From the NCBI GenBank assembly GCA_965116025.1, contig OZ220480.1:398415-462414 (forward strand): a stretch of DNA of 64,000 nucleotides. Reading direction: 5' to 3'. The position numbers and the translations under genes were made by a program. Every line of letters begins with the position of its first letter. The stretch's first letter is position 1. Under the pieces are notes generated by a model. It was not told the origin of the DNA, did not search any database, and saw only the letters and a list, made by a program, of their open reading frames with translations. Below, piece after piece: positions 31,059-32,966 of this stretch. This DNA is from an uncultured candidatus Porisulfidus sp. GTDB lineage: Bacteria; Pseudomonadota; Gammaproteobacteria; Poriferisulfidales; Poriferisulfidaceae.

Positions 31059-31343
31059 ATGAAAAAATCTCCTTCTCTGGCATCCAGCCTGATCGCGCTG
31101 GCCCTGGGCTCCGGCCTCGCCTCCACCTCCGCGCTGGCGGTTCCCGACGCTCCCAAGAACTGGGAGAAATGCGCTGGCGTCTCCAAGGCGGGCATGAACG
31201 ATTGCGGCGCGACGGATGGCGCGCACGGTTGCGCTGGAGCTGCTCCGGAAGACGGCATGGAAACGGAATGGATCTACGTCCCGGAAGGCACCTGCGAGAA
31301 AATCGTGGGCGGGTCGGTGTACGCGACCAAACCCGCGAAGTAA
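31059..31343 (+). CDS. bufA: bufferin-type RiPP precursor (DUF2282), Sec signal peptide plus Cys-containing core
   Basis: It reads [27 protein letters not shown], then ...[27 protein letters not shown]...[13 protein letters not shown]. This matches the DUF2282 consensus (EKCYG.AKAGKNDCA...H.CAG...VP.GTCEKI.GG). GAGG sits 7 nt before the ATG. Confidence 0.75.
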
Positions 31344-31392
31344 GTCTCGCTTGATGCCACCGGGCGCGAATCGGACGACCTCGCTCGCGGGA

Positions 31393-32193
31393 ATGGGGGT
31401 CGGCTTGCGCGGCCCCCATGTCCCGGATATCTTGCGGCAAAGTCCCGCTGTTCCTTGGTTCGAGCTGCTGACCGACAATCACTTGCGCGACGGGGGCGCG
31501 CTCCGGTTCCAAGCCGAGGCGGTCGCGGAACGATACCCCGTGGCTCTGCACGGCGTCAACCTGTCACTCGGCGGCATCGACCCGCTGGATCATGAATATC
31601 TGGGTCAGGTCCGGGACCTCGCCCACCGCGTCGATGCCCGCCACGTCTCCGAGCATCTGGCCTTCGCAGCCTGCCAAGGCATCCACAGCCACGACCTGCT
31701 GCCATTGCCATGGACGGAAGAAGCGCTGGGACATGTGGCGGACCGGATTTCGAACGCCCAGGATTTCCTCGGCCAAACCATCTTGGTCGAGAACATCTCC
31801 ACCTATCTGGAGTACCAGCATTCCACTATGACCGAAGCCGACTTCTTGCGAGAGCTTTGCGCGCGAACCGACTGCGGGCTGCTTCTGGATATCAATAACG
31901 TCTACGTCAACTCAGTCAACCACGACCATGACCCGCGAGACCTGTTGGACTCCATTCCCTGGGCCCGGGTCCGCGAGGTTCATTTGGCGGGCCACGAGGA
32001 GCGCGACGGGCTCCTGGTCGATACGCATGGAGGACCCGTCAGCGATGACGTGCTGAATCTGTTTCTGGACGTGGCCCCCAAAATCCCGGAGGTTCCCGCG
32101 CTGTTCGAATGGGACACTTCTCTGCCCGCATGGCCCGTCGTCTGGCAGGAAGCCCAACGGCTTGACGAGGCCTTCCGGGCCGCGCGCGCGTGA
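31393..32193 (+). CDS. bufB: DUF692 / MNIO (MbnB-like multinuclear non-haem iron oxidase) partner of the bufferin precursor
   Basis: It reads MGVGLRGPHVPDI...ELLTDNHL...VALHGVNLSLGG...ILVENISTYLEY, the TIM-barrel DUF692 signature. An alternative start lies at 31354 in the same frame. Confidence 0.75.
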   Translation: MGVGLRGPHVPDILRQSPAVPWFELLTDNHLRDGGALRFQAEAVAERYPVALHGVNLSLGGIDPLDHEYLGQVRDLAHRVDARHVSEHLAFAACQGIHSHDLLPLPWTEEALGHVADRISNAQDFLGQTILVENISTYLEYQHSTMTEADFLRELCARTDCGLLLDINNVYVNSVNHDHDPRDLLDSIPWARVREVHLAGHEERDGLLVDTHGGPVSDDVLNLFLDVAPKIPEVPALFEWDTSLPAWPVVWQEAQRLDEAFRAARA

Positions 32194-32966
32194 ATCTCGC
32201 GGACCTCCAGGCCAAAATGCTGGAGGCGGTCACCGGAGCGGCGCGTTCGGATCCTAAGCTCGCCTCCCTGATTCCGCCAGCCCGCGGAATCGCCCCAGAG
32301 ACGAGGCTGAACGTCTACCGCGCCAATATCCGGGAAGCGCACCTGAAAGCGCTCGACGATGCCTATCCGGTCACCCGGAAGGTCTTGGGTCCCCGCTATT
32401 GGCGGCAGCTGCTGGCGCGGGAAATCCCGGCGTTCGGGTCCCGATCTCCCGATCTGCATGACTACGGGGGCTTCCTGCCAGAATTACTTGACCAAGCACA
32501 GAAGCGCCGGGAAGAATTGGCCGACTTCGACTATTTGGGCGAGCTCGCGCGGCTCGAGTGGCTGGTGCGCATGGCGGGATTCCAAGCCCCCGATCCGGAT
32601 TTCGACTGGACCGCCTTTCGATCACTGGGAAAGGACCGCCAAGCGCGAGTCCGGTTCGTCTTGAGCGACGCGCTACGCTGGACTCGATTCTCCCAGCCCG
32701 TCGACGCGCTGTGGCATTCGCACCAAGAAAACGGACAAGACCTTCCCCCGCAAGCCCCGGTCGCCTGCTGCGTCTGCCGGAAACAACGCTTCGATGTCAC
32801 GGTCCGCCGGCTATCCGAGCGCGAATGGACGCTTCTGGAAGCCATCGGCGAAGGCCGATGCCTGGAAGAAATTCCCCACAGTGCTTCCGAGACCACCGCG
32901 AGAACCCTGCTCGACTGGATTCGACGAGGATGGATCAGCGGCTTTCAGGAAGAGCCGCCCGGCTAA
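32190..32966 (+). CDS. bufC: DUF2063 protein (MbnC-like partner of the MNIO enzyme)
   Basis: Its GTG start overlaps the bufB stop. It has the RLNVYRANI motif characteristic of DUF2063. 258 aa. Confidence 0.7.

Follow-up and report, generated by a model that had tools for sequence, protein, structure and literature searches.

What do the three co-directional genes at positions 31059–32966 of this DNA make, and does their product handle copper? They lie in a 64,000-nucleotide stretch of contig OZ220480.1 from an uncultured candidatus Porisulfidus sp., a sulfur oxidiser associated with sponges; the whole stretch was analysed and is called the window below, and an original prediction made from its letters had read them as a bufABC-type operon for a ribosomally synthesised and post-translationally modified peptide (RiPP). 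That reading was borne out. Three open reading frames (ORFs) lie exactly there, and the profile searches that had been proposed as a check, with DUF2282, DUF692 and DUF2063, matched all three families, with an equivalog model recognising the enzyme as well. We conclude, with a probability of about 85%, that the locus is a Buf1-type bufferin operon, bufABC, for a thiooxazole metallophore RiPP (captophorin).

No protein of the locus is better conserved than the precursor BufA, which has 91% amino acid identity to the nearest species and matches PF10048 (DUF2282) at 77 bits against a cut-off of 22.4 (E 1e-21; profile positions 1–52 of 53). The original prediction had given DUF2282 the accession PF09995, which we correct to PF10048 (Pfam search; PMC12452194), and had counted five cysteines, but the translation contains four, namely C38 (CysI), C49 (CysII), C58 (CysIII) and C79 (CysIV). 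These substrate residues are observed directly and, together with His56 and Trp71, are invariant in 121/121 aligned BufA homologues; the EKCAG, NDCG, HGCAG and GTCEKI motifs in which the cysteines were said to lie are all present. The Sec signal peptide, also foreseen, is a rule-based prediction, as is its cleavage site: residues 1–27 comprise a KK n-region and a hydrophobic core (residues 7–24), followed by the sequence A-L-A before and V-P-D after a predicted cut behind Ala27. This cleavage context is conserved, V28, P29 and D30 being kept in 111–119 of the 121 homologues. The predicted core would then span residues 28–94, 67 residues in all, with a predicted monoisotopic mass of 6824.11 Da unmodified and about 6814.03 Da modified (−10.08 Da).

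Within this core the cysteines stand at positions 11, 22, 31 and 52, with spacings of 11/9/21, as compared with positions 12, 23, 31 and 52 and spacings of 11/8/21 in the 68-residue core of Caulobacter vibrioides bufferin 1 (PMC11626156; bioRxiv 10.64898/2025.12.15.693703); set against the published residue numbers of a characterised bufferin, the spacing is conserved. In that protein the 5-thiooxazoles arise from Cys23 and Cys31, and a disulfide joins Cys12 to Cys52 (PMC11626156; bioRxiv 10.64898/2025.12.15.693703), which narrows the original expectation that all cysteines are converted to the two central ones. An AlphaFold2 model of BufA, built on 53 sequences, has a predicted local distance difference test score (pLDDT) of about 90–96 over the mature part and a disordered signal peptide. 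It places strands at residues 34–39, containing CysI, and 70–75, and a short helix at 79–81, containing CysIV, so that the predicted topology is that described for Buf1.

A library-wide phmmer search with BufA recovered 997 representative clusters (50% identity) at E ≤ 1e-3, and the Buf1-type family is very widespread, with thousands of members in published surveys (PMC12452194, PMC13097082). Close homologues already carry the name 'DUF2282 domain-containing protein' in GenBank. NCBIfam holds no BufA1 model, and neither BufA nor its homologue P0077, a BufA1 family protein by its UniRef name, matched an NCBIfam model even at E 10; a PDB sequence search with BufA likewise returned no meaningful match. 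The same phmmer search also turned up several two-domain BufA1 proteins of 164–198 residues and one protein of 1480 residues (P0199) with 13 separate BufA1-domain matches, a very large tandem bufferin-domain polyprotein.

BufB, a multinuclear non-haem iron oxidative enzyme (MNIO), matches PF05114 (MbnB_TglH_ChrH) at 324.7 bits (E 5e-97) and passes the NCBIfam equivalog model NF050167 MNIO_BufB ('MNIO family bufferin maturase') with 323.9 bits against a cut-off of 310. It lies under the NCBIfam cut-offs for HvfB (248.4 vs 360) and MbnB (52.5 vs 325), and likewise under those for ApyH and ChrH. The nearest solved structure is 3BWW (E 5e-50), and BufB aligns with TglH and MbnB through the iron-ligand motifs. 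Across 27 BufB sequences from the related loci, ten residues (H66, H101, E146, D179, N182, H210, D223, H225, E252 and D254) do not vary. All of these except E252 and D254 align with the metal-site motifs of MbnB, and in 3BWW the D223/H225 and E252/D254 pairs fall on VDTHG and ERD, respectively. N182, D223 and H225 correspond to HvfB N175, D242 and H244, without which thiooxazoles do not form (bioRxiv 10.64898/2026.07.17.739211). D254 lines up with the Asp that has been proposed to act as the catalytic base of FonB, and the residue that follows it is not conserved, as reported for DUF2282-type MNIOs (PMC13097082). Judged from these alignments, the metal-site set and the putative catalytic Asp are complete.

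BufC matches PF09836 (DUF2063) at 54 bits against a cut-off of 27.2 (E 2e-14) and consists of an N-terminal helical DUF2063 domain and a C-terminal domain resembling a RiPP recognition element (RRE), the latter scoring 24.7 bits with NGO1945_C, just below the cut-off of 27. Because a PDB sequence search with BufC gave no meaningful match, the protein was assigned by its predicted fold. The AlphaFold2 model (pLDDT 89.8, predicted TM-score 0.85) found 3DEE/NGO1945 (E 6e-6) and TglI chain 8hci_A (E 4e-5) in a Foldseek search of the PDB, with a weak match to MbnC chain 7fc0_C. Of these, 3DEE serves as the archetypal structure for DUF2063 partner proteins of the 'PME1' type. Gene identity and family membership are thus direct observations for the precursor, the enzyme and the partner.

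How the three proteins would work together is modelled on the characterised Caulobacter system, by analogy with which we propose the chemistry, with high confidence, as well as export, the disulfide, copper binding and a physiological role. The 94-residue BufA precursor would be made in the cytoplasm and modified there by a complex of BufB, an iron- and O2-dependent MNIO with a mixed-valent di-iron site, and BufC, the DUF2063/RRE-type partner that would hold the substrate. Four-electron oxidations would turn the central C49 and C58 (core Cys22 and Cys31) into 5-thiooxazoles, after which the modified peptide would be exported by Sec and cut after Ala27 by signal peptidase I. In the periplasm a C38–C79 disulfide would lock the small beta-sheet fold, and the two thiooxazole thiolates together with two nitrogen ligands would hold a single copper ion with very high affinity, so that the protein would act as a copper buffer there. 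In Caulobacter, formation of the two thiooxazoles needs both BufB1 and BufC1, and these two are enough; Buf1 binds copper 1:1 with a dissociation constant of ~6e-15 M for Cu2+ and 7e-20 M for Cu+ (PMC11626156). Later work confirmed that the rings are 5-thiooxazoles (bioRxiv 10.64898/2025.12.15.693703). The physiological role is less certain than the chemistry because the genomic context contains no pointer to copper stress: here the product could be an excess-copper sink or a housekeeping copper holder.

The operon structure is also observed directly. The gap between bufA and bufB is 10 nt, and the GTG start of bufC (32190–32192) overlaps the TGA stop of bufB (32191–32193) as GTGA at 32190–32193, just as had been predicted; the same 4-nt overlap is found in the relative L001, and bufC is, on this arrangement, translationally coupled to bufB. 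The bufB frame is open back to 31216. Its ATG at 31354 yields a protein identical to the public gene call, with 31393 as a candidate alternative ATG start. Over 30 independent loci show the same co-directional A-B-C order, on which ground we dismiss a chance pattern. At the other end, the stop codons of bufC and the convergent tyrS overlap within CTAA at 32963–32966 (TAA on the plus strand, TAG on the minus strand) and no terminator-like site was found between the two genes, so transcription of either would run antisense into the other. This stop overlap also occurs in L001 and L012, and in L013 the gap is only a few bases. No second precursor or second MNIO gene was found in the 64 kb window.

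The original prediction had also remarked on the lack of a DoxX gene and of an adjacent extracytoplasmic function (ECF) sigma/anti-sigma pair. The absence holds for the entire 64 kb window: tblastn with four DoxX proteins and three sigma/anti-sigma pairs from related loci gave a best E of 0.3, and a screen for small multi-helix membrane ORFs left one real candidate, which was rejected as DoxX and is UPF0093/HemJ. To call the absence notable, however, overstates it. Deletion of bufD in Caulobacter affected neither modification nor copper protection (PMC11626156), and of ~13,700 MNIO clusters 71% contain a DUF2063 protein and 40% a DoxX protein (supplement of PMC12452194), while DoxX is absent from 22/24 evaluable related genome loci and 6/6 further metagenome loci. 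Since the published data and our counts agree, a missing DoxX is the rule in this branch of the family and no anomaly. The genome loci divide into 12 with a minimal bufABC, 10 with an ECF sigma factor and a ~207-residue partner after bufC, and 2 with DoxX; for the metagenome loci the corresponding numbers are 5, 1 and 0. Conservation within the clade is plain, the bare bufABC being present in 12/12 'Ca. Porisulfidus'/Oxydemutatoraceae-type species recovered, with tyrS convergent just downstream in 10 of these 12 close relatives and in L029. In the sister clades (Woeseiaceae, Bermanella and others; L015–L022, L025, L026, L028, L032) the sigma factor and the ~207-residue protein lie directly after bufC. 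The former comprises Sigma70_r2 and r4_2; the latter has no Pfam match, is not NrsF, and is presumably a new type of anti-sigma factor. These clades share a sharply conserved ECF-type promoter, TGCAATCAAA-N15/16-CGTCT, before bufA, a motif that the window clade lacks. With the sister-clade sigma factor it makes a clean candidate sigma/promoter pair for bufferin regulation.

A different block precedes bufA in the window clade. In an alignment of nine species, conservation begins abruptly at TGGAC, the sequence further upstream being unalignable, and TGGAC, GGGAACAAA and ACAATG are invariant. Two overlapping candidate elements can be drawn in this block (Table 1). The sigma70-like one was missed by a general promoter scan because only 8/12 positions match. 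The other is ECF-like, and its pattern, GGAACAA-N16-TC(A/C)AT, agrees with the E. coli sigmaE consensus GGAACTT-N16-TCAAA (PMC1312014) at 8/12 positions in the window and 9/12 in relatives; scores of 8/12 and 9/12 are reached in 34% and 7% of random 120-nt windows, so it is conservation, not the score of a single site, that carries the sigmaE-like assignment. The window has a single copy of the ECF-like pattern, which among loci L001–L028 is confined to bufA promoters, with no further copies that could define a regulon in the window or the related loci. Each of the two readings leaves some invariant bases unexplained. By inspection we rejected a sigma54 promoter, given no GC at −12, and a MerR-type promoter, given no 19–20 nt spacer with a dyad. 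A structured leader or riboswitch 5' of bufA was also rejected, the fold being no better than shuffles (z 0.39), and an Rfam scan of the window returned tRNAs only. As far as the alignment indicates, the operon has its own conserved promoter, with sigma70-like or ECF-like factors as candidates, and has lost the dedicated sigma circuit seen in the sister clades; the block at 30976–31013, rather than a dedicated ECF sigma factor, probably drives bufABC expression.

Purifying selection maintains bufABC. In comparisons of the window with six related loci, the ratio of non-synonymous to synonymous substitution rates (dN/dS) was 0.03–0.13 for bufA, 0.10–0.18 for bufB and 0.09–0.28 for bufC, as against 0.06–0.12 for tyrS (synonymous divergence of these pairs ~0.5–4, mostly near 1), such that the constraint on bufA equals that on the essential tyrS. 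The nearest genomes come from metagenome assemblies ('Candidatus Porisulfidus', 'Ca. Oxydemutatoraceae' and Chromatiales-type), with BufB identities of 68–81% and closed chromosomes of 1.6–2.1 Mb. A tRNA cluster (Lys-His-Arg-Pro) lies upstream of bufA in the window and also in L003, L005, L007 and L011, separated from it by a variable spacer of 1.3–1.7 kb. The other genes of the window are housekeeping genes (argS, an M23 peptidase gene, anmK, an erpA-like and an argC-like gene, hemJ, ligA, mpl and trk), interrupted by insertions.

Table 1. Features of the bufABC locus and of the surrounding window. Positions are those of the window; promoter elements and the signal peptide are predictions.
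Feature	Position	Strand	Description
bufA	31059–31343	+	94 residues; DUF2282/BufA1 precursor, PF10048
Predicted Sec signal peptide	31059–31139	+	BufA residues 1–27
bufB	31354–32193	+	279 residues; MNIO of the bufferin-maturase subfamily, PF05114
bufC	32190–32966	+	258 residues, GTG start; DUF2063 partner (PME type 1), PF09836
Promoter and 5' leader block of bufABC	30976–31058	+	conserved in the nine-species alignment
Sigma70-like candidate	30976–31004	+	TGGACG (30976–30981)-N17-GACAAT (30999–31004); 8/12 positions here, 9/12 in most relatives
ECF/sigmaE-like candidate	30986–31013	+	GGAACAA (30986–30992)-N16-TCCAT (31009–31013); overlaps the sigma70-like element
C6 tract	31031–31036	+	bufA leader
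Shine-Dalgarno GAGG	31050–31053	+	5 nt before the bufA ATG
tyrS (tyrosyl-tRNA synthetase)	32963–34156	−	Pfam tRNA-synt_1b and S4; convergent 3' boundary, outside the system
tRNA cluster	29406–29764		Lys-His-Arg-Pro
138-residue ORF	29967–30383	−	no Pfam/PHROG match
Spacer	30384–30975		between the 138-residue ORF and the promoter block
RTX-type protein	34436–35608	−	12 HemolysinCabind stretches
RTX-type protein	35658–36437	−	3 HemolysinCabind stretches
hemJ	40979–41470		
Methyltransferase region	41624–47098	+	Dam-like D12 methyltransferase, 878-residue protein, N6_N4 DNA methylase
HAD hydrolase gene	47180–47869		
Autotransporter-domain protein	1320–4544	−	1074 residues
Autotransporter-domain protein	15704–19171	−	1155 residues
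Transposase_29 protein	21196–23424	+	742 residues

Several of the surrounding features vary between relatives. The 138-residue ORF has no counterpart in any related locus. Together with the spacer after it, this ORF sits in the variable 1.3 kb between the tRNA cluster and the promoter block, and the region may be a remnant of something integrated beside the tRNA genes. Between tyrS and the M23 peptidase gene, the RTX pair occupies a region of lower GC content and strong strand skew and looks like a window-specific insertion because loci L001 and L003–L013 have no counterpart. The methyltransferase region, whose 878-residue protein resembles helicases only weakly in PHROG, probably represents an island for restriction-modification or defence; it is flanked by hemJ and the HAD hydrolase gene and read as an insertion because these two are adjacent in L001. 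The window also encodes two large autotransporter-domain proteins and a Transposase_29 protein, and another autotransporter adjoins bufABC in L034. In other relatives (L003, L006 and L010) toxin–antitoxin genes lie between bufC and tyrS, among them Fic/Doc with a ribbon-helix-helix antitoxin in L003 (11639–12240, minus strand) and a Zeta toxin in L006 (11880–12945, minus strand). A further arrangement places bufABC, in the same orientation, directly downstream of COX3-SURF1-COX15-CtaB (L029, 1–3860) or of COX2-COX1-SCO1 (L030, 785–3906), with COX4_pro near bufABC in L031. As a general feature cox linkage was rejected, these being the only three of ~32 loci.

Some observations speak against the identification as a copper-buffering Buf1 operon. 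Between CysII and CysIII the window protein has one residue more than Caulobacter Buf1 and two more than the Thiothrix and Legionella plasmid examples that carry DoxX, and Caulobacter BufA1 was compared through its published residue numbers only. BufC scores 58.1 bits against a cut-off of 142 for HvfC, the sole partner model in NCBIfam, which has none for BufC, and it is therefore assigned by Pfam and fold rather than by an equivalog model. The 64 kb window contains no copper-homeostasis gene, metal sensor, DoxX or ECF sigma/anti-sigma pair, and the system is known here from sequence alone.

This context bears most on what the product is for. The same thiooxazole chemistry might serve housekeeping copper handling, such as holding copper for, or delivering it to, cytochrome c oxidase, instead of defence against excess copper. 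Such a role would fit the lack of a stress sigma/anti-sigma pair and of DoxX, the core-genome site between the tRNA cluster and tyrS, the strong purifying selection on the operon in ~1.6–2.0 Mb genomes, and the relatives in which bufABC follows cytochrome oxidase genes (L029, L030) or lies near COX4_pro (L031). We nevertheless consider it unlikely: the linkage is seen in only 2–3 of ~32 loci and is absent from the window, the sole functional data concern protection from excess copper, with the authors contrasting bufferins with copper-supplying methanobactins (PMC11626156), and femto- to zeptomolar affinities suit a sink. It is less probable still, and rather remote in our estimate, that the product mainly binds or detoxifies another thiophilic metal or a reactive species of relevance to a sulfur oxidiser (e.g. 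Hg, Au, Cd or Ag) with copper secondary. Homologous 'gig' operons do respond to gold, cadmium and copper (PMC11626156), MerC-Buf1 fusions occur in mercury loci (PMC12452194), and the CysII–CysIII loop is longer than in the characterised protein, but Caulobacter Buf1 picked copper from a metal mixture (PMC11626156), the ligand-bearing residues are invariant across the subfamily and the canonical examples, and the window has no mer, ars or czc genes.

Two further readings carry less weight still. With DoxX and the sigma/anti-sigma pair of other family members absent here, bufABC could be a decaying, non-functional remnant left after their loss. The three frames are intact, however, with dN/dS of 0.03–0.28 at a synonymous divergence of ~1, no catalytic or substrate residue varies, the promoter block is likewise conserved, the minimal layout is kept in 12/12 close species and 5 further metagenome loci, and DoxX is experimentally dispensable (PMC11626156); because bufA is as constrained as tyrS, we set this reading aside as very improbable. 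The least credible reading is the older one found in databases, where Pfam lines such as 'Predicted integral membrane protein' and 'Putative DNA-binding domain', and the RefSeq partner name 'DNA-binding domain-containing protein', would make a signalling module of a DUF2282 membrane protein and a DUF2063 DNA-binding regulator rather than a RiPP pathway. Against this, the only hydrophobic stretch of BufA is the predicted cleavable signal peptide, the fold of BufC groups with the RiPP partners TglI and MbnC and with 3DEE, and in vitro reconstitution of the Caulobacter system shows the pair to be a peptide-modifying enzyme, so that published biochemistry refutes it for the family.

Current Pfam and NCBIfam models already recognise all parts of the Buf1-type operon, the family has been charted in thousands of genomes, and the locus adds little about bufferins as such. 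What it shows is that strong purifying selection keeps the three-gene core in reduced, symbiont-type genomes where neither DoxX nor a dedicated regulator accompanies it, a result that supports published work treating DoxX as an accessory. It also suggests that regulation was swapped within one gammaproteobacterial lineage, the sister clades having an ECF sigma factor with its cognate promoter and the window clade another conserved block. Only two points are mildly new: this clade-specific block has replaced the sigma pair, and in the reduced symbiont genomes the operon holds a fixed place in the core genome. A tentative extension, which we think doubtful though less so than any of the rival readings above, is that in small-genome, sponge-associated sulfur oxidisers the bufferin operon has become a fixed core-genome function, stripped of DoxX and the sigma pair and rewired to the clade promoter, with the copper buffer produced either all the time or in response to general envelope stress. 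Behind this would then be life in a phagocytic, metal-accumulating host, or copper supply to cytochrome oxidase, at which the cox-adjacent copies of two relatives hint. If sponge symbionts do need a copper buffer, this would be informative about the metal environment in the host.

Comparison with known systems places the locus among Buf1-type operons. Methanobactin MbnABC has in common with it an MNIO fold with the same metal-site motifs, a partner protein and a Cys-derived copper ligand. It differs in forming an oxazolone/thioamide, not a thiooxazole, on a short leader-dependent precursor that is exported and re-imported to scavenge copper, and we rejected this identity on the MbnB score (52.5 vs 325), a DUF2063 protein in place of MbnC, and a 94-residue Sec precursor. 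The EGKCG captophorins (oxazolin/HvfABC, fontiphorin, gonophorin and bulbicupramide), to which 3BWW and 3DEE belong, resemble the window locus closely in their MNIO and PME1 partner and also make 5-thiooxazoles, but their precursors are EGKCG repeats and largely unstructured, unlike BufA of the window. No EGKCG repeat was found in BufA and the cut-offs of both HvfB and HvfC were missed, so this identity was also rejected. The Buf2 bufferins (Buf_6/12Cys) share with the window locus maturation by an MNIO and a DUF2063 protein, Sec export, copper binding and clusters that lack DoxX. Their precursors have 6 or 12 cysteines and no PF10048 domain, and a Buf2 identity was rejected on the four cysteines and PF10048 match of BufA.

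The gold-induced gene (gig) operons of Cupriavidus metallidurans and Legionella pneumophila are built from the same DUF2282-DUF692-DUF2063 modules, as are the four-gene plasmid copies, for instance on Thiothrix subterranea pThsubDNT52_1 (NZ_CP133216) and a Legionella plasmid, in which the four cysteines align with those of the window. Unlike the window locus these operons and plasmid copies carry DoxX and are often found on plasmids or in metal-stress regulons; their CysII–CysIII loop is two residues shorter, and their BufA proteins are ~46–58% identical to that of the window over the core. The Caulobacter vibrioides operon buf1ABCD (CCNA_03363–03366) has the DUF2282 precursor with its Sec signal, the BufB-type MNIO and the DUF2063 partner in the same A-B-C order. 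Its Buf1 has Asp22 before CysII, Ala32 after CysIII and a second beta strand at Trp44–Lys48 (PMC11626156; bioRxiv 10.64898/2025.12.15.693703), and in the published numbering the window core follows it nearly residue for residue with Asp21-Cys22, Cys31-Ala32 and Trp44, the last again falling in the second strand. The window locus differs in lacking bufD (DoxX) and a nearby SigF/NrsF-type regulator, in the one additional loop residue between CysII and CysIII, and in being embedded in the housekeeping genes of a reduced symbiont-type genome. The bufABC operons of the sister clades combine the ECF sigma pair with the TGCAATCAAA promoter where the window clade has neither and a different promoter block instead, but they lack DoxX equally, their BufA and BufB proteins are 55–69% and 38–67% identical to those of the window, and most of their BufA proteins keep its VPD(A/Q)P..WEKC core N-terminus.

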